Assembly (NCBI GenBank): GCA_964016885.1
Contig: OZ024747.1
Location: 79,174,001-79,238,000, forward strand
DNA length: 64,000 bases
Source of the DNA: Eledone cirrhosa
Lineage: Eukaryota
Direction: 5' to 3'
In this document: positions 12,501 to 26,200 of the stretch, piece by piece
How the letters are laid out: every line of letters begins with the position of its first letter
How positions within the stretch are numbered: position 1 is the stretch's first letter
The notes under the pieces: model-generated
What the model was told of the DNA's origin: nothing
Database searches by the model: none
Seen by the model: only the letters and a program-made list of their open reading frames with translations
Translations under genes and position numbers: made by a program

Positions 12501-15500
12501 GCCCAGCCGCTGCCATGGCCAGGTGTCTCTGGAAATATAAACCAATAATAATTAGCAATCATCATCATCATCACCGTTTTTCGTCTGTTCTTCCACGCTA
12601 GCATAGGTTAACATTATATGTGAAATATTTATCTAAATATGTTTAAACCCCCACCCATAGACTCCATAGGTTAGAGAGAGCTCTTCAGCTGGGTCAATAT
12701 CTACAACTTCCCTAGTGCTAGTGCCATGAAAACTGTACCCAATACACCCTTTAAAGTGGTTAGTGATAAAAAGATCACCCCTTGTAGAAACCATGCCAAA
12801 CTACCTAGTGTTGGTGACCTTCACTATAAATATATCCAGTACACTGTAAAGTGGTTGGTGATAGGAAAGACATCCAGCTGCAGAAAACTTGCCAAACACT
12901 CTTCAATTGTGTCAAAAGAACATATGAAAGGGAGATGCAGGTCTGTGGTCTATTTAAGAGGTCAGTAGCTCTGCTTGAGTACTGACCAGTCTGTGATAAC
13001 ATATCTAACCCTTACTAGCAGAGACCAGATGTTATATTAGAATGTAACATGTATATAAATTTATGTCTAGTGTACATGATATAGATACAAGTAACAGAAC
13101 AGAATAAATGAACTCGAACCTGAGGCCTCCACTATACTGCAGGCCATACCAACTGACTCAACTGGACCTATAATCTGGCTTGAGTATGGGCCTGATGGAA
13201 GCCAATAATGGATATCTCACAACCAGATCATTATGAACTAAGCCTTGCTGCATGTCTACATTATCTCTAGCTTACAGTAAACTATAATTTAACTATGGTA
13301 AGTTGGTTTCACTGCAGTATCTAAACATTTAGTAAATTTTCATTTGTTGTAACTGATTTTACAAAATAACCCTCCTGATCTCAAATCACCTGAAAGTTCT
13401 GGGTATTTCAAAACTTAATAATGAGAAAGTTAGCGACATTAATAAACTGTTAAAGTTCCTAAATATGTTGAAAATTAATTGGAAAATTATCATAAATGCC
13501 TTTCATTAGAAATATGATAATGAAAGGGTTAATGTCTCGTCATTAACCACTAAACTATGAAATAAAGGGTAGAAAAAGATAGAAGAGGAAGAAAGGGTGA
13601 AAGCAAGAGAAAAACAAAGAATTACCTCTTTCTGTCTTTGGTGTCTCATCCCATCTATTTCTGCGAGCACTTGGTGTAGCTTGGTGACCGGGAGTGTCTC
13701 TACCGGGCGTAGCAGCCCCAGGTGTGGCATGACCAGGCGTCGCTTCCCAAGCTCGAGTGCTCGCGCCAGGTGTGGCACTCGGTGTTTCTCCCCCCTTAGA
13801 ACGACCAGGTGTCTCATCCCAGCGAGTGCTGGAAGGGGTGGTAGCTGTTGCTTCTGCAGCATCCCAACTGGAACTCGATGACTTCTTGGCTGGTGTGCTA
13901 TCATCTGTTGCTTGATCCCATCGTCGTCTTTTCACGGGTTGTTTCTGAGCCACAGCTGCCGCCGCCGCTGCTGCTGCTGCTGCCACAGACGCAGATGTGC
14001 TTGAAGCAGATTCTCCTGACGAACCATTCACTGCATGTAACTCTCCTGATTTCGCCTTCTCTACCAGTTGTTGTCGTAAAGCAGCCTGGTAAGAGAGAAA
14101 TATGCAACAGATTTCTATTATAATGGAGCTAAGTGTAATATCCTCATCATTCGCTTCCGATGCAGATATGGATAGGACATACACACATACATCAACTTTT
14201 CCATGCTTGTGTGGGTTGACTGTGTTGTTTCCAACACAACATCCCTCCACCTGCAGTATGGAAAAGAAGGCATGGATGATGATGATGATGATGATGAATT
14301 TAAAGTAGATAGATATTTTGCAAAAGTGGATAAGAGAAAGAACCCCCATCCCATGAAATGAAAGTGAAAAGCAATGAAATATGTATGAGACATCAAAGTC
14401 ATAACCACTCACCTGTTGGTGTGTAAGTCGTTGTTCAACCATCACATCAGAGAAAGTTCGTTTGTTCAATTTTGGATCGGGAGTTTTGCCACCTGAAAAA
14501 GAAAGCAAACAAGGTCACGACAAGATGCCGTGACAAATAAATTCATGTGTAAGGAAATATGAAAACACCTGCATTGCAGTTATCAACTGTAGAACACCTC
14601 CAGAAACCACTTCACACATTAAATCATGTCTTGCCCTTCCAATAATATATAGCATTAATATTGGAAAAGTTTAGAGAGAGAAACAGAGAGAAAATAGATG
14701 ATAAACAGAGAAAGTATTAGAAACCAAACAGTTCCATGTAGTTATGAAAATAATGAGGTGTTATCCTGAAGTAAAGTATATTTTAAAATAGCCAGATGAA
14801 CTAAGGAAACTCTAAGACACAAGGAAATAGGAATCAGTAAATAACCTTAAATGGTAGAGAATAACTTGTAGAGACACTACGCTGGGTTAAAATAGAATAG
14901 AAAGAGTTTGAATCAGATATTCTAAAATTGCCCCTAAAAAGCCATGGTCCAAGTAAACTTTAGAAGGGAGGAATTAACACTGTAAAGAAATATATTTAAA
15001 ATATAACACAGAAAAACATTCTGGTTAACTAGCTAAAGCTAGACCTGAATGAGCAGATGAGATACCATTATCTATGACAAACAATAATGCAACAATATCA
15101 TGTCAGCCTTACTAGAACTGTGTTAGTTAGTTTCCCGGTAATTCAAGGATTTAAGGCTCTGAATGTGCAGTCTTGTCAACTGTTTAACAGAATAAAGTAA
15201 CAAGAGGAAGCTATTGTTTTGATACTCAACCAAAACAAAAGGATAGATAGAAAAGAAGTATGAAGACATCATTCAATATAAACTATCATTTGAAAGAAAT
15301 GAAATAATAGTCAGCATACCTCTACATAAATACATGGATATATCTACACACACACTAATAGATTTACAAAATCATACTATGGCAGTGTAATACCATGCCA
15401 CACTATCTTATTCAAATGTTAACTGAAAGAGAGCTACATATATATTTAAATAGACCAAGTATTATTACTGACCAAACATTCTTCAAAATACCAATAATAC

Positions 15501-18500
15501 TACAATCAAGCAGAATTATTTGTTAACTAAAAAAAGTAAAGTAATATAAGTCTAGGTAAAGGACACATGTAGGGTTTGAACACCTGACTCCTGAGTCACT
15601 GGTTAACATCTTAATCACTGTTCAATATGAAACAGATGGAGCCCAATTCACCCAAAGTATTCAAAATATTTTCTATTTATATTGTTTTAATTGACATTAC
15701 GTATAACAAGTGTCAACTAATTCTGAAAATAGTTGAACATAACTCAAGGACACAACAAAAATTAACCAGTACATATATAAGCAATATGTTTTTGGTCACA
15801 AGATTGACAGCTAGATAAACAGCAAAATGAAAAACATTCAGACCAATATACTGAGAGAGAGAATGAGATATAAACTTTTTCAATACTAAAAACAAATTAT
15901 TGGAAGGGAAAGACAGTGATTAGAGATGATCTGATGATTTTGGAAGAAGAGGAATTAAAGCAAGCATTTCCCCAAAGGTGGGTATCAAATTTCATTAGGT
16001 GCTACAAAAGTAGTTTAAATGACAAAGAAGTAAAGGGAAATGCTTGCTTATTTCACAGCATGGTAAAAAAAAAATACTGTCTTCCTTTTACTATCATACG
16101 TACAGTGCAGCTTCATGAGTTAGTGCCATCTTCCGTTCATGTCTGCTTTCATAAACACCAACCCTAAAATTAGTCTCAGATTAGTGTAGTTCTAAAAACA
16201 GAACAAGGAGAGAGAGAGAGAAAAAAAAAAGGTTCCAAATAATTCTTCTTTTCCATCAATTAATAATGGAACAGCCTTGGCAAAACTAACAACTATAATT
16301 TTCGTTTCTGATTTACTTCTTCAACACTCACTAAAGTATTCAGATAAATTAAACTATAGATGTTTTGTGTATGTGTATATATATATATATGTGTATATAT
16401 ATATATATATATTAATTACATAAAATTATGAGATTCGTATAGAATCTTCGACTTTTACTACATGATGCTACAGAGAAACCAGATTGCATTTCTTTTCTTT
16501 TACAAAACTAGTTTGGGGGATCATATTTTAATATAATTTTAGAGTGACCGATTGCTGTCAAAAGGATGAGGAATTTGAACAATCATCTCATTTGATATCT
16601 GTTGTAGGAGGTAGGAGGATAGATTTCTCATCTGGAGAGGAATGGTGTGGAGAATTCTGAAATCTGTCAAACTGAAATATTTGTTGGGCAATTTCAAATT
16701 TTATCATGTGTGTGTGTGTATGTGTCTACACACATGTGACACACAATATTGTGAACATTTATAAGCTGATAGCAAGCAAAAGACCCATAGATTTATTTTA
16801 TGAACTAACTTCCAGTAGATATGTATGTAGTGTAAATATAAAATCTATATACTGCTATAAAAAGGTAGAACTAAATGAATATCAAGGGAAAGAAACAATC
16901 CCCCTTTTCACTTAAGATATGTTTGTAAATAGATGAGACAAAACTATGGAAAGCAAATCACCAAACTTTTACTTTAGCTGAAGAGAAATTATGGTTAATA
17001 AAGAGTAAAATGAAAGCCAATATATTGAGAAAAATCCAGTGACAGCAATACTGCAGCACAACAGGAAACATCGGGATTGTAAATTATACTGGATAATTCC
17101 AGTGGTTTTTAAACACCCAGTCTTTCTATAGCAACATGTAGTAGACAATAGGATATGAACAAATAAGTTACACTACTATTGTCAGGTATCCTATACATAT
17201 TGTGAATTGTTGTGTTATTTTATCATGGATCAGGTTTATTTAATTTTAAAATAAACACCTAACGCTTTTTTTTGGCATTTAAAAGATATGTAACAACTAA
17301 ATTAAGATTTTTTTAAGAATCCAATCTTAACATTAATGTTTTGACAAGATCAACAATGCAGAAGGAAGGGCACCGAGGTGAAAGCACCTCACATGATAGA
17401 TGTCGATCAGGCACCAACGGCAGCAAGGCATTCCAGAAGCTAGAAAGGAAAGATACATTTAATTAGTACCCAGATTTTTAAGTTGTGCATCAGTTAGTGG
17501 CACTAGTGCCACAACACTGAAAGAGTAGCAGTACTGTCTACTTCATGCAGTCTTTTTAACAGCATGTAAAACAGGTGATACACATTTGCAGTTGTCTCTT
17601 GAAACATATTCTTAGATTCAGTTGAGGTAATGGTGGAGGTACTGATGTAGTTCTATTTAGTGGATCTAGACAGAATTTAGCTAATGGATTAGTTAGATTG
17701 TTTTTTTCTCCTTCACTAATGTCATAAGAATAAAACATCAACCAGTAAAAACAAATTTGCACACGGTTTTCAGGAAGAAAAGTTATTGAGACTTCAAAAA
17801 CTGATATTATAACCACAAATTCTTTAGAATCCTCCAATACATGTCTGATAAATTTTTCAGAGAACTATAAAATTTCATTATCAACAAGATAACTCAAAAT
17901 GTCACCTATCCAATGACATGACAAACTTGAAATATGAAATTTCAATTTCAAAATCCAAGGAACAGATCTGTATCCAAAGAACAGAATTTGGCAGCAAAGA
18001 AAAATATTTTACAACAGTAGTGAATGTTGATGATTGATCTCAATCCTAAGATGACTTAAATATGTAAGAAAAATTCTAATAACATTAGCCAAGCTACAGA
18101 AAGGAAACAATCAAATGGATGCTTAGATAGAAATATCAAAATATGTTAAATACTGGCATAAAAAGGGTAAAATAACTTAAATATCTAAACAAGCTATGGA
18201 CACAAAATAGGAAATGTATTTTGATGTTTTCCAGACTAATCCCACATCAAATGGAACAAAACCGTCTAACCCATGTTAGCGTGGAAGATGGATGTTAAAC
18301 GATGATGATGATGATGATGATGATATATATACTTTGAATGTGAAAAAGAAAATTCTATAAGAACACAAGTATATGAATTCCATTACTTAAAAAGAGAGAA
18401 GAATACAGTCCATTGATATAACCCTAGTATTTTATTAGCATTAATATTATTAACCGAGCATTGATCCCAAACAGAGAAAGATGAGCCACCAAAACCAATA

Positions 18501-19240
18501 CAGTAAACTATCTAGTTCTCTACTCTGATAATAATAGTAATTTAAAATGAAAAAGTACAAAGTTGTAGTAGGAAAGCTAGAGTCTAACAATATCATAGCC
18601 TATGTGATTAATAATGTAGGTGAGAATTAGTTATATATGTACAAATTAATCTTATCATTACCAAATTTCTAACGGAATAAACTGCCTGCGTGTTTCAATT
18701 AATTTTGAAAATAGCCAAAGATTTTGAGGAATTTAATAAAATAATTAAGTTTTTCATTAGTAAGCTGCTATTAAAATAAAATTATAAGGCTAAACATTTT
18801 TAAATGAGCAGTTTCAGGTGGTTTGGTGTCAAAAAGGTTAAAGAACATTCACTGAGAGTGCATTTCATTATAAAAACAATGGCTTACACACTGAATATTC
18901 TTTGAATCAAAATTATTTCAAAAGGAATTTGTTTGATACTTTAATTCTATGCAACATTGGAAGACTATTCTAGGACTATTTTCATATGTAGTCCTAGAAT
19001 ATATATATATATATATATATATATATCGTGAGCATCTTGATTTTTTATATAGGTACACTATATCCTTGTGTGTCATAAGAGGCAACTAAAAGAGTTGGCA
19101 TCAGGAGGGGAATTCAGCCATAAAACTCTACATTAAATCCTGGTCCAACATACGCCAACATGGAAAAGTAGATACAAAAACAATGATATATATATAATCC
19201 ATTTACATTCTCTTTTCTATACTATTATGTGTTTGACATG

Positions 19241-19271
<31 letters not shown>

Positions 19272-19560
19272 AGCAAGGTACGGTACAGCCAACTGGCTCG
19301 ACTTGTCTCATAATGTGAATGACCTGTTTAACCCATGCAAGCATGGAAAAATAGCCATTAAACAGTGATGATGATGATACACATACAGTCTCATACATAT
19401 GTAAAGGAGTGCTTAACCCTATGCGTAATATTTTTGCGGATTCACCCTAAAACTTGAAATGGTTTACAGTAATCAAAAGTGATAACATATAAAATAAGCA
19501 AATTTAATAAATCTTACTATGTAATACTAATGATATATTTTCTCTGGAAAATATATCACA

Positions 19561-19621
<61 letters not shown>

Positions 19622-22600
19622 ATATATATATATATATATACACATATATATATAATTAAACACATGAGAGAGAATAAGATACTCTTTCATAAAGTATTAC
19701 TTGACTGCTAGTCAATAAATTATACATATTAATTTACTTTTTTCACAAGAGCTTAAGTTTAATTACTTGTGTGAAATAAAGAGACTAATCCAAATATTTG
19801 CCTTTATTCAAACAAACGCTCAGAAAAGAATGAGTTTCTAGACTGACAAAATGAAATCCAGATATTTATAATGTTCCTAACCTAAATGAAATAGCTCCAC
19901 CTGGGAAGTTAAAACACATTATAAGGAACTTTCATCAACTGACATATGATGGAATAATGAACAAGGTCAAAACCCAAACAGATATTTCCAATACAACAAA
20001 AATAATCTTCTTAAATAAAATGCAAACAAATTTTTTTGTAAATTTATCTGAATTATTTTGTTTTTAAATGGATTCACAAACTATTCAGTCAGCTAAAACC
20101 TAACAATACTGATAACCATGTGTGAGCTACGGTGGATGATGAAATGTAATATATATGTCAGTGTACATTTTACTGTACTTTTTGTTTGTAAGTTTTGTTT
20201 TGATTTTTCCATTGGGAAATTAAAATAGATATATCTTATTCAGAAAATTCTCAAAGATTGCCAAAGCAATTTAACTGGAATTTCAAGCCAACAACAATTT
20301 TCTATTTGTGGCTCAATTGATTCAATATTGGACTACTTCACGATCCTTGGAACCTAAAATGGAAAATATACAGATATATATTTATAAACTTGCATATGTA
20401 TGTATTCATCTTATACATACACAGAATTCTCTCTTTAATCTCTTGATAAATATTTATATATATATATAAAAATAGATCAGGACTGATGTGTTTTTCCTGA
20501 AAAATTGCTATCAGCCAAACTAGGGAAAAAAAAATCTTCAAAGAAGGGACCCCTCCTTTAAAATTACATTTCTGAAAAAAATTATGTTTTGTTATATTTC
20601 TGAAGACCAAAATATTGCCTCAGTGAATGTTACAAGATCTTAGGCAAATTTTTTTGTTAATTATCAAAACATTTAAATGCTTTTAAACACAAAGATACAA
20701 AAACAAAAAATAGTTTGTGTTTAAAAGTAACTAATATATAGGCTTGTAAAACCCCTTCAAAATCAGATGAAGAATATAAGACGAAAAAAAGTATTCGGGC
20801 AAAAAATGAAAAAAAAAAACTGTAAAAGATTTATAAATAAATTATTTGCAAAATGATAATTTTCAAAAGAAATGACTAACCTTCAGCAAATGGATCATAT
20901 CGTTCAGGAGAAATAATCATTTGCCTACGAATAGCTCTATAGTCATCTTCTCTGTCAGCAATTCGGGCTGGCCGGTTGTCAGCAAGAGGATCATAGTTCT
21001 GAAAAAATGAGATTAAATCAACAAATTATTACAGAAAAACATTGTATCATACTGTACTCCTATATAAGTCAGATTTTATATTTATAATATTTTGACCTGT
21101 ACATAAGTCACATGTTGCTTTTTGTTAATGTTGTTTGCAACTTCACTTGTTATGATAGAACACACCCAGTATATTCTGTAAAAGACATGATAACCTCCCG
21201 TACCTTGGAGATCAGTGTCACTCCAGATAGAGCCGTTACAAATTGAGAGATCACAGCTCCAATACTATGGGCATGTGGCTAGAATGTCCCAGGAAAGAAT
21301 TGCTGGTCAGATTTTACAGGCAAAACCAACCAGTAGGAGACCCAGGAGTAGACCCCAAGCAAGATGGTTGGATAACATCCAAGAGCTTGGCTGGTCTGGC
21401 TTGGGGATCCAGTCGGATTAGTTAGAGACAGTTGCTTCTGACAGAACCCACTGGAAGGAGTGTTTGAGGACTTTGTCCCCACAACCCTCTCAGGAATAAG
21501 TGAGCAAAGAAGAAGAATTTGGTGGGATTTAGTAAAAAAAAAAATAACTTTTTCAGTATTAAGCTGATGTTTAGAATTTAACTTAAGATAGGTTCTTACA
21601 TAAAATTATGATGGAAGGATTTTATACATAGTTTAAAATAACCAATTTTTTCTAGGAGCGTTAGTTTTATACATAAAAATTGGTTGTTTTATACATAGTT
21701 TAAAATAACCAATTTTTTCAGGTGGGTTGCAATCAATAGGATTATAATAAAACCACACACACACAATCAGAACCTTGAACTATAAACATGAACTGTACAG
21801 CTTACTTTGTCATTTAATGTATCATTCAATAAATTCAATGGTGCAGTGAATGATGATTTCTTGGAATAAGATGGCTCCTCTTCTTCGTCCTATAAAGATA
21901 AAACATATTTTAGTTTTAACAATAAAGAAAAATGCTGCCACCAACATCAATAATATCAACAAGACTGGAATAACAGAGATAGCCAAGTCCATAACCAAAC
22001 TGTATGGTGCTTCGCTACTCATTTGTTCTGTGATGACATGACAATAAATAAAATTTAAAAAAATAAAAAAATAAAAAAACAGACCACCCTTTTAGGGTAA
22101 CTCAGTGCTTTTTGAAAACCAAGCCAAAAATGGAGTGTATAAGCAAGACAGGGTAACCTGACCTGTCTGGCCTCATAATGTGACAGACCGTCATGGACGA
22201 ATGGAAAATAGTCAAACAGTGATGAATATAAAGGACCCCTAGGTATGTTGTTTTACATTATTTTTCACTATTAGCCTCATCTTCTGATCATTTTAAAATA
22301 TATATTTCTACAATGTGTTATGAAACTAGGAATCTTTATAACTAAGTGCAGTAATATGTTTATCATTACGATCATGGTGTCAAGTCTCCTTGGACAATGT
22401 TCATAATTATACTTCTCCACTTGTCCCCTATCCAGCATGGCTTCTGCGAGTTCATCAAATCTACACAATAATCTAGCTACTAGTAAAGATATAAACATTT
22501 GAATTAACAAACCAATTTTTTTAATAGATATTTTCTGCTAAATCATTAAAGGATGTTAAGAGTTAAGTTGATGTCCCACTAGGTTTTACTGACTAGACTA

Positions 22601-23230: not shown

Positions 23231-26200
23231 ATCAAGCTGAAATTTTAAAGACACTTACACTTTTCTACATAGAAAATAAATAATTTCTATGCCCTACCCA
23301 CCAGTATTGAGTACTCATTCGGTTAATGTGTGAATGTTTTAAATATTATGGTATTTTAAACACACATTCTTTTATATATATACTAGCATTAAAGCCCGGC
23401 GTTGCTCGGGGTCATTAAGTTACCAAAGTTAGGTTGCACCATCCATTTTATGGCAGCACTTTTTTGTCTGCCAGGCACTGGGTGAATGAATTGCAGACCT
23501 AGAAGCAGGAGCTGCGCCAGCAGTGACAATTGTAGTTTCGCCTATGGATATTATCTCTGTGCAGAAAAGTGTTGAAATTTATTGTTTCACAGTACTTGCG
23601 CAACACGCGCGTAGACAATGCCAGCCAAACAACAGAGCTGCGATGGAGTTGTTCTGCATGGTTGTCTGTGTGTTTTCTAAATTTAAGACAGTAGGGAGGG
23701 TTGTGATATGAGGGAGAGTTAGCTGTTGTTTCTAGCAGGTTTAGTGACCTCATAGAGGATATGTGTTTTCTAAATTTAAGACAGTAGGGAGTGGTGTGAT
23801 ATGGGAGAGAGTTAGCTGCTGTTTCTAGCAGGTTTAGTGACCTCATAGAAGATATGTTTTCTAAATTTAAGACAGTAGGGAGTGGTGTGATATGGGGGGG
23901 GGGGGAGTTAGCTGCTGTTTCTAGCAGGTTTAGTAACCTCATAGAGGATATGTGTTTTCTAAATTTAAGACAGTAGGGAGTGGTGTGAACGGACAGTATC
24001 ACCATCAAGCTTGGAAAGAGAAAGTAGCAGAAAGTATGAAGTTGTATAGATTTTGAATGGTAGTAGAAAGAGTTCAGCAGTTTAAATGAGAGAGAAAAAT
24101 CGTAAAATATTGAGTTTTATCTATTTTTTGCGTAATTGTGGGTGAAATTGAAAAAATTATCTGCGTCAAGGCGCAATCGAAATTATTTCGGATACTGAAT
24201 TGTAAATTTCAATTGAAGAAATTCTATATCGTAGATTTCTATAACGAAGGAGCATGACCACACACTGAGCTTTATAGATTATGATATAGTGAAGAAGTAG
24301 AGTCAATGGAGTATCTATGGTGCAAAGACCAGAAAGACCACAAATTTTCTCTTGAAAAAACTTGTAGAAATGCTGTTGGGATTCTAGCTCTTCATTATAT
24401 ATCACAGAACATGTATTTAAAACATGAACTAATGAGTACTTAATATTGGTGGGTAGAAACATGGAAGTATCTTTAAAATTCCAGTCATACACACATATAT
24501 GTATGTAAAAGGTATATATATATACACACACACAACTTCTTGTTTTTAATTGAAAACAGAATAAAAAATCTTTTATTACTTACATCTTGGTCTTCATTTG
24601 GAGCAATTGAAGTGACGTAACCTTCAAATTTACTTGAAGAAGATCCATAGATATCAGTGTCAAAATGACCTTCGGCACCAAGACCAACACGTTCTCCATT
24701 ATCTTGAAACAATGTATTCTTTTTCTGTTGAATAGTTCGGACTTTCTCTTCAATATCTGCAATGAACAATGATTGATAAGGTTTAATAAAATTGAATAAA
24801 AGGATTATTAGTATAGAACCTGACAGTCATCATAATTTGATTTTTCAATGCTGGCAATAGTTGGATGGGTTGTCATGGTCCAGTTCAATTCTTATTTGGA
24901 ATTACTTCCTTCCTAGAGAGATCAGAGACTATGTCTCTCATACATCCTATTTTTGGTATGGTTTCTGGATGGCCTTTCTATCATTGACCTTTTTCATTCC
25001 TTTATTTCCCATGGGAGGAGAACCAGCATAAGAAGGTTTACATTGCATTTAATAAAGCAACCCCTTCATTGACATACTTTTAATGAAAGACACTACCTTT
25101 AATTTTCAAATAATTTTGAAAATAATCATGTATTTGGAGAGATTTAATGATACAACTTTCTGATTGTTAAGCTGGTACCTAACTTAAAATTACAATAGTT
25201 GTTTTGTTTGTTTGTTTTTATAAATAGAAACACTTTACAGCAAACATTTATATATGATAGGCCCACTGGTGGTTTCAGGGGATTTAGTATCAAAAAGGTT
25301 AATGGTTTTCTTAATTCAAACAATTTAACATTCTATAACTAGTATAATATTATTCTAGCCACAAGTGTTCTTTCAAGGCAGTCAATCTAAAAGAGTTGTT
25401 TGAACATTGGACATTTGTTCTAGTTAAAATCTCACTAAGTTCTACTTTGCTTTTCATCTTTTCGGGGTTGATAAAGAAAGCATCAGCACAGAGCTGGTGC
25501 AGCCCTTTTCCCTTCTAACTGTTGCATCTTGTATGTTTCGCTGGCTAAAAGGAGGGAGAATCAAGAGTGTGTCTGTGCCTGCATGTGCACCTGAAACACT
25601 TAGCATTTATTAAATCTCTTTCAAAAAATTACCTCCCTCATCTAATTGAAGTTTCATATTTAAATCTCTTTCATATAGCATCTAACATGACATTTAAATT
25701 GTAATTTGTTTTTAAATGTCAACAGCCCATCATTTGATTGGGAAATTGATTTCAAGAACTGGATTTTTCATTAAGTATTATCTTTCTATTAGGAACCTTC
25801 TCCAGTTAACATCATTATCGTTTTTACATCTGCTTTTCCATGCTGACATAAGTTAGATGAGATATTTGAGTTAAATACTCTCATTCCCCTGTAAAATACT
25901 AAAGACCTGGCTGGTAGAGAGGAATTAAATCGAAGTTATGGTAGGAAGAGAAATGATTAGGTTGGTACATCGATAATGTAGTTGTGTGAGATAATAATTA
26001 ACTAACATGGCAGCAACATTTAAATACAAGGTCTCTGATGGTAGGAATGTTAAGCTGGATATTAGAAATAGCATGAAGATTGATCTCGGAGGTCAGAATT
26101 TGGAATACTGAGCATTAAAGTTGAGATGACAACAGATTGATAAACTGTAATATGACAAACATATCCAACAATACCAGCATGCAAAATGAACATTAAAACA

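Follow-up and report, generated by a model that had tools for sequence, protein, structure and literature searches.

A conserved block in the fourth intron of SF3B1 in the octopod Eledone cirrhosa belongs to a set of two or more conserved cryptic splice units, which together probably act as decoys that keep some of the transcripts in a nonproductive, intron-retaining state. Most of the gene lies on the minus strand of the 64,000-nucleotide (nt) stretch analyzed here (contig OZ024747.1, positions 79,174,001 to 79,238,000; hereafter the window). The two units are referred to as unit A, which lies within the conserved block (block A), and unit B. The sequence anatomy of the units, their conservation, contigs that run unspliced through the intron and the splicing of the unit B donor to exon 5 were all observed directly. 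Sequence comparison makes it likely that the octopod system is the invertebrate counterpart of the decoy and retention system in intron 4 of human SF3B1 and is ancestral to bilaterians, in an arrangement likely to be older than the protostome-deuterostome split. An initial annotation, made from the sequence alone, had described unit A as a poison exon or alternative last exon controlled by a hairpin; the signals of intron 4 are likely an ancient brake on SF3B1 output rather than a hairpin switch.

Cryptic splice units in intron 4 of octopod SF3B1

The octopus copy is the expected orthologue. Its exons align with Octopus SF3B1 (P0121) at 78-100% identity per high-scoring segment pair, mostly 97-100% (tblastn), and the last exons (beyond residue ~1080) lie outside the window. 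Positions given below are those of the window, and a slash marks the boundary between exon and intron; the coordinates of the features are collected in Table 1. Intron 4 exceeds 1 kb and is selectively retained, as are the large introns that carry decoy exons, with contigs yielding no ratio for the retention.

Block A is about 98% conserved in related octopods. It differs from organisms A and F by 4 substitutions and 5 gaps in 279 nt and from organism C by 5 substitutions and 2 gaps in 271 nt. This conservation exceeds that of the adjacent coding exons (4/279 versus 11/168 differences in organism F and 5/271 versus 8/160 in organism C), and the flanks of the block cannot be aligned at 80% in organisms A, C and F. 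The block has one match in the 3.0-Gb assembly, in a search that skips very common words, and GC content is 0.50 at 17340-17439 compared with 0.20-0.34 immediately 3' of it, so that the description of a unique and GC-richer block was borne out. A repeat origin, dispersed or tandem, was rejected in view of the single assembly match and the lack of a tandem array there. A sequence look-up with block A gave no match.

All motifs named in the initial annotation (TACTAAT, AG, the 47-nt exon, CAT/GTGAGG, the hairpin, TAA and AATAAA) are present at their positions, and translation agrees that inclusion of the 47-nt exon leads to a TGA in exon 5 while read-through stops at the TAA at 17335. Several of these motifs are frequent in the window. 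TACTAAT on its own occurs 9 times on the minus and 8 times on the plus strand. A rule combining branch site, pyrimidine tract and AG, which was written post hoc with the site already known, has 3 minus-strand and 4 plus-strand matches in 64 kb, and unit A is its sole match in intron 4. Perfect 6-bp hairpins of equal stability occupy 6 distinct minus-strand places in 64 kb, two of them inside block A. The second of these (17512-17497, minus strand; GTGGCA-CTAG-TGCCAC) lies beside a second branch-like CACTAAC at 17499, and more CTAAC/CTAAT motifs are found at 17696-17688. AATAAA is unremarkable, with 116 copies on the minus strand and 4 within intron 4.

Public sequencing runs from five other organisms contain part of the window; 7 distinct runs of 24 were compared and 6 cover block A. 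The stretches compared exclude exon 4, and the tissue was without a block of nonsense-mediated decay (NMD). In all six covering runs the contigs pass 17440 and 17393 unbroken and the sequence carries on past 17235. Use of the 47-nt exon, as first proposed, was not borne out, since these runs contain no junction or break at either site (contigs drop rare forms) and no 17393-to-exon-5 junction among the joints listed. The alternative last exon fared no better: no transcript 3' end was seen after the AATAAA at 17240-17235 in the six runs, in contigs that show ends unreliably. Intron 5 was spliced out in four of four runs, and the same four have a separate contig extending from exon 5 into intron 4. 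The unspliced signal is thus specific to intron 4.

Unit B, which the initial annotation missed, is spliced. Position 16104 is joined to exon 5 in two of four runs: X18 lists the joint itself, and in X8 29 letters of exon 5 are attached at 16103; the junction is absent in X14, and X24 does not cover the position. The contigs that carry the junction are unspliced upstream, in X8 through block A. Organism F has no contig across unit B and is uninformative. The annotated Octopus isoform X2 (P0122) begins MKLHC/GKTP, which corresponds exactly to the 16104-to-exon-5 junction. Half-spliced RNA with the 5' portion of the intron still in place would stay nuclear and escape NMD, which may be why this junction is visible in contigs and junctions from exon 4 to a cryptic exon are not. 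One codon after the unit B stop, an ATG (16116; 16122-16104, minus strand) stands in the exon-5 frame; gene predictors use it for an N-terminally shortened SF3B1, and it is not conserved in the bivalve locus L003. A longer unit B of 88 nt, beginning from an acceptor at 16192, was rejected, as the conserved stretch there is the branch-site region ending at the 16164 AG.

Other parts of the intron are also conserved in related octopods. An island at 16456-16589 (minus strand), shared by organisms A, B and C, contains the acceptor-like sites CCTTTTGACAG and TTTCTCTGTAG and may hold extra decoys. Two additional islands lie at 17092-17247 and 15871-16090 (minus strand). An Rfam scan of intron 4 found no family, its 8 matches being AT-repeat noise below the gathering score.

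Table 1. Features of SF3B1 intron 4 and its flanking exons in the window
Feature	Position	Strand	Remarks
SF3B1 exon 4	20881..20998	-	Phase-1 end, donor AAG/GTTAGT; tblastn with P0121
Intron 4, phase 1	14493..20880	-	6,388 nt; frequently unspliced in contigs of related species
Conserved block A, holding unit A	17344..17629	-	Ends vary from 17344/17351 to 17614/17629; larger than the span first annotated (17235..17468)
Unit A acceptor: TACTAAT (17468-17462), pyrimidine tract, AG (17441-17440)	17440..17468	-	Likely decoy 3' splice site
Predicted 10-bp stem, unit A branch site (17471-17462) with candidate exon (17418-17409)	17409..17471	-	Pair probability ~0.67; in the minimum free energy fold of the block
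47-nt candidate exon	17393..17439	-	Frameshift, TGA in exon 5; inclusion none seen in covering contigs
Hairpin on positions +3 to +8 of weak donor CAT/GTGAGG	17375..17390	-	Predicted pair probability 0.94-0.97, -7.0 kcal/mol
Proposed terminal exon signals: in-frame TAA (17335-17333), AATAAA (17240-17235)	17235..17335	-	
Unit B acceptor region ACACTAAT ... TAATTTTAG	16164..16193	-	Across 16193-16161, 27/33 nt shared with bivalve locus L003; alignment A4
Unit B cryptic exon, 60 nt	16104..16163	-	In-frame TAA 16122-16120; human E4e counterpart
Unit B donor T/GTACGTAT	16096..16103	-	Identical to human E4e donor
9-bp hairpin covering predicted branch point of exon 5	14514..14534	-	Stem 14534-14526/14522-14514; octopod, bivalve and annelid loci
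SF3B1 exon 5	14413..14492	-	tblastn with P0121 and contig junctions

Intron 4 across phyla

Scanning metagenomes with an alignment of exon 4 yielded 80 loci, of which 16 were removed by hand (no intron or a doubtful one at the position, mostly GC-rich) and 3 were not parsed. The remaining 61 intron-4 copies were used and 34 of these are complete. Locus groups are named after the nearest named protein only. The unit B donor octamer GTACGTAT is present in 23 of the 34 complete introns and in 3 partial ones. Its carriers are bivalve L003, an annelid group (L019 and kin), the annelid-like L077 and L008, the arthropod-like L025 and the termites L029 and L033. All seven lineages with an intron longer than 1 kb, the window included, have the octamer, where chance would supply it at 0.3-2.3% per lineage. 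It occurs 27 times in 112,870 nt of intron 4 compared with twice in 277,641 nt of other sense DNA and once in 390,015 nt of antisense. Of the 11 complete introns that lack it, 4 are short and arthropod-like (with the variant C/GTA(T or G)GTAT), 3 are bee-like and 4 are cnidarian-like.

The donor is accompanied by the rest of the unit. The exon before it has a YAG/G acceptor and measures 49-89 nt; 11 of 13 representatives contain an in-frame stop, and the remaining 2 shift the frame. Under a strict rule, 19 of 27 introns have a unit A-type acceptor (WCTAAY, tract, AG) at a distance of 442-1365 nt upstream from the unit B donor, and looser patterns add L023, L037 and L025 (200 nt in L025). Bivalve and octopod have the acceptor string ACTAATT.AA.G.AT.TTTC.TTT.TAG/C in common. 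The conservation expected of the noted element thus extends, for its acceptor, to positional counterparts across protostomes. Both sites of unit B are conserved across phyla, as is the unit A acceptor, while the unit A donor is conserved within octopods only. When 10 other loci were folded after the unit A-type acceptor, 3 had no donor above the cut-off within ~140 nt and the rest had weak donors in varied places. The 10-bp stem over the unit A branch site was not found in the other lineages folded. Among the NCBI X2/X3 isoforms of molluscs, nemerteans, arthropods and echinoderms, 21 of 23 begin in exon 5 (among the matches listed), a pattern that indirectly fits what annotated breaks between exons 4 and 5 across bilaterians would produce.

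Some loci have features of their own. The arthropod-like introns of L004, L005, L006 and L007 (545-614 nt) contain two cryptic units, an upstream one with a strong AG/GTGAGT donor and one of E4e type with T or G at +4. In the L019 group the branch region of unit B is immediately preceded, ~75 nt upstream of the acceptor, by a strong palindromic stem (TGCGACACAC..GTGTGTCGCA). The fish locus L002 is too short for recognizable E4d or E4e counterparts. Local alignment of the whole of block A with 21 other introns gave one match above z 2.5 (L037), which looks like chance.

A third conserved element, also missed in the initial annotation, is the hairpin over the branch point of exon 5. The predicted branch point is a weak CGTGAC with its A at 14515, and the 9-bp stem that covers it is present in the bivalve intron and in all annelid introns aligned (alignment A2, 14 chosen rows), where 95% of cells pair. 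When the 7-bp outer stem of the annelid group is included, there are 10 double-sided changes (0/500 shuffles), with a covariation score that was matched by 4/500. The fold z of the acceptor ranges from -2.2 to -4.5 in seven of seven lophotrochozoan introns, compared with -1.5 to +1.3 in 8 other loci, and as a control it falls below -2 at 1 of 14 other acceptors in the window. A termite hairpin at the exon 5 acceptor is in a different register (z -1.9) and was not counted.

A proposed retention mechanism and its alternatives

These elements suggest how retention could arise. The productive splice from exon 4 to exon 5 would be slow, as its donor reads AAG/GTTAGT and its weak branch point would be hidden in the hairpin. 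The strong branch site and AG of unit A would engage U2AF/U2 and the exon 4 donor as a competing acceptor, and unit A, with a donor that is both weak (U1 duplex -5.0 kcal/mol) and folded, would seldom complete splicing. The weak donor of unit B (U1 duplex -3.1 kcal/mol) would compete for the exon 5 acceptor. Transcripts left retained or half-spliced would remain nuclear, and the rare fully included forms, which carry early stops, would be degraded by NMD. More tentatively, at slightly less than even odds, the elements may constitute one device inherited from the ancestor of human, octopus and insect, consisting of a strong decoy acceptor, an E4e-type stop exon with an invariant weak donor and, in molluscs and annelids, the hairpin. 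The invariant donor of such a device would have a non-G at -1, never A at +4 and a perfect match at +5 to +8, and it would read the U1-to-U6 hand-over. If true, SF3B1 output would have been the read-out of one 5' splice-site checking step, linking the U2 core to U1/U6 status, for more than 550 million years.

Several observations weigh against the decoy model and its ancestry. The RNA evidence consists of contigs and not of raw reads; contigs report presence only, give no ratios, do not represent single molecules and drop rare forms, and most of the runs were merely guessed to be RNA. Run X19, from the window's own organism, has no contig over block A and is uninformative. None of the 6 covering runs has a unit A junction, so that engagement of unit A by the spliceosome is presumed. 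The core of the exon 5 stem is nearly invariant (75/500 shuffles), and the double-sided changes come mostly from one annelid group of kin. The bee-like introns (166-167 nt) and the 4 complete cnidarian-like introns do not have the units. Exon bodies cannot be aligned between phyla beyond the splice signals, and homology with human E4d and E4e therefore relies on short motifs, order and position. Positions +5 to +8 of the donor are the complement of U1, so that the octamer could have arisen by convergence, and the intron set contains no deuterostome invertebrate.

Units A and B could instead be plain poison exons that are included at a regulated rate set by the SF3B1/U2 snRNP level and destroyed by NMD, with retention as a by-product. 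Both exons give early stops, and NMD would mask junctions from exon 4 to A and from A to exon 5 in contigs from untreated tissue. The human exons are reported to be included upon NMD block (PMC6097662) and SF3B3 has a poison exon (PMC11162794). We regard this explanation as unlikely, since the unit A donor is not conserved outside octopods and the unspliced form is the abundant one in contigs. In human cells with one copy of SF3B1 the mRNA falls to roughly half, a result that speaks against tight feedback (PMC5357138). A strong branch site would also be a poor sensor because it would be used even at low U2; introns before SR poison exons are reported to have many weak branch points (PMC5959240). 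The suggestion in the initial annotation that SF3B1 senses its own level through the unit A branch site is unsupported.

The initial annotation also proposed that the hairpin at 17390-17375 selects either a 47-nt cassette that leads to NMD or a terminal exon whose end is set by the AATAAA at 17240-17235. All motifs for this switch exist, and the hairpin is predicted with high pair probability. The hexamer lies within a small conserved island (17215-17247), and organism B, in which it is altered, has another hexamer ~15 nt further on. In the arthropod-like L025 (2270-2365), T/GTGAGG is overlapped by a 10-bp GAGG..CCTC stem after a unit A-type acceptor, the only distant look-alike found. Such a switch is nonetheless quite improbable. 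The six covering runs contain neither its junction nor its 3' end, the frequent AATAAA is followed for 40 nt by A/C-rich rather than U- or GU-rich sequence, in which the downstream element expected for polyadenylation is missing, and the hexamer is not kept at this place in organism B. No covariation is seen for the hairpin, and donor and hairpin are both absent in 9 of 10 non-cephalopod loci folded. A switch conserved as such is therefore not what the comparison supports.

Hardly credible, finally, is an explanation in which block A owes its conservation to another role, as a DNA enhancer or as structured RNA within the intron, and resembles a splice site by accident. Upstream of the AG, conserved sequence extends for about 190 nt, the block folds with a z of -1.9 and no splicing was seen at it in the covering contigs. 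Other phyla, however, keep precisely the strand-specific branch site, tract and AG in the same place relative to unit B, and there is no Rfam match.

Elsewhere in the window, ~7 near-identical copies of a ~390-nt unit with AG microsatellites occupy positions 1-2800 and may be an intronic tandem array or an assembly artefact. Intron 2 contains a 93-nt tandem repeat in 3.4 copies (23669-23988). A short peptide fragment in intron 3 (21194-21425, plus strand) presumably resembles a reverse-transcriptase element. A high-copy dispersed repeat lies at 18230-18330, where many unrelated X19 contigs stack.

Comparison with known splicing decoys and concealed sites

No spliceosome gene is mutated more often in blood cancers than SF3B1, which is also a drug target. 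To our knowledge, few intronic elements can be followed from vertebrates into protostomes. The short human SF3B1 isoform, we assume, uses E4e. The human intron-4 decoys govern a large share of SF3B1 transcripts.

Intron 4 of human SF3B1 contains the decoy exons E4a-E4f, for which a decoy model of retention was proposed (Parra et al. 2018, PMC6097662; Parra et al. 2020, PMC7373989). Blocking the E4e donor lowered retention from ~26% to 3% (PMC7373989), and the drop in retention on deleting or blocking sites is shown for human E4e only. The octopod and human systems have in common the gene, the intron position, the phase, several conserved cryptic exons with early stops and a retained intron (PMC6097662), and the kinship with human intron-4 cryptic exons suggested by the initial annotation holds in kind, as a conserved noncoding splice-signal element in the same gene and intron. 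The counterpart of E4e appears from sequence to be unit B rather than the 47-nt exon, as the donor, length and acceptor of unit B match. The human E4e donor is T/GTACGTAT according to the morpholino sequence (PMC7373989), and E4e is 56 nt long (PMC6097662 Suppl. Table 1) compared with 60 nt for unit B. Both exons have a similar TAATTTT..AG/G acceptor, which reads TAATTTTCTAG/G in human E4e (by eye from Suppl. Fig. S1, PMC6097662) and TAATTTTAG/G in unit B. Unit A is placed upstream like human E4d and shares with it a TCTTTCC..AG/C acceptor (by eye, Suppl. Fig. S1, PMC6097662). The 10-mer CAGTACTGCT (17536-17527), which also begins human E4d (Suppl. Fig. S1), was taken as chance; it is palindromic, was chosen post hoc, lies upstream of the acceptor and, among the 80 metagenome loci, recurs in just 1, where its position is unrelated.

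The systems also differ. Intron 4 is 6.4 kb in the octopod and 1.8 kb in human. Unit A departs from the human decoys in its consensus-like branch site and its folded weak donor, and a hairpin over the exon 5 branch point is not mentioned in the available parts of the human decoy-exon papers. The role of human E4e is known from blocking (PMC7373989), whereas that of the octopod decoys is proposed from sequence and contigs. Conservation of the human system, as far as the published text and figures at hand go, extends from fish to mammals, with lamprey rows in a figure; here it is extended to a cephalopod, a bivalve, annelids and arthropods.

The exon 5 hairpin can be compared with the stem-loop that conceals a branch site in SF3B3 (Li et al. 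2024, PMC11162794). Both hide a branch adenosine, predicted in the octopod, within a conserved stem in the gene of an SF3b subunit, and the SF3B3 stem is conserved across animals (PMC11162794), whereas the octopod type was found here in molluscs and annelids only. The SF3B3 stem precedes a poison exon, whereas the octopod 14534-14514 stem precedes constitutive exon 5 and would thus favour retention rather than limit it; the two sequences differ. The stem predicted over the unit A branch site, which does precede a candidate cryptic exon, is not conserved. In the available supplement of PMC11162794, SF3B1 is mentioned as primers.

The ultraconserved pseudo-5' splice site of ENOX1/Enox (PMC13100119) is likewise a short intronic donor motif, shared by vertebrates and invertebrates in a homologous intron and linked to retention. 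The ENOX1 site is never spliced, however, while the donor of unit B, at the end of a cryptic exon, is joined to exon 5. SF3B1 occurs in the references only in the accessible part of PMC13100119 and is not mentioned in PMC12179342, and no publication on invertebrate SF3B1 intron-4 elements was found in the open-licence literature. What is known is thus the human decoy system; the protostome extension and the conserved stem at the exon 5 branch point appear to be unpublished. The comparison reduces the device to the letters under selection, namely one donor octamer, one strong acceptor and one stem, which shows experimenters what to mutate, with invertebrate models on offer.

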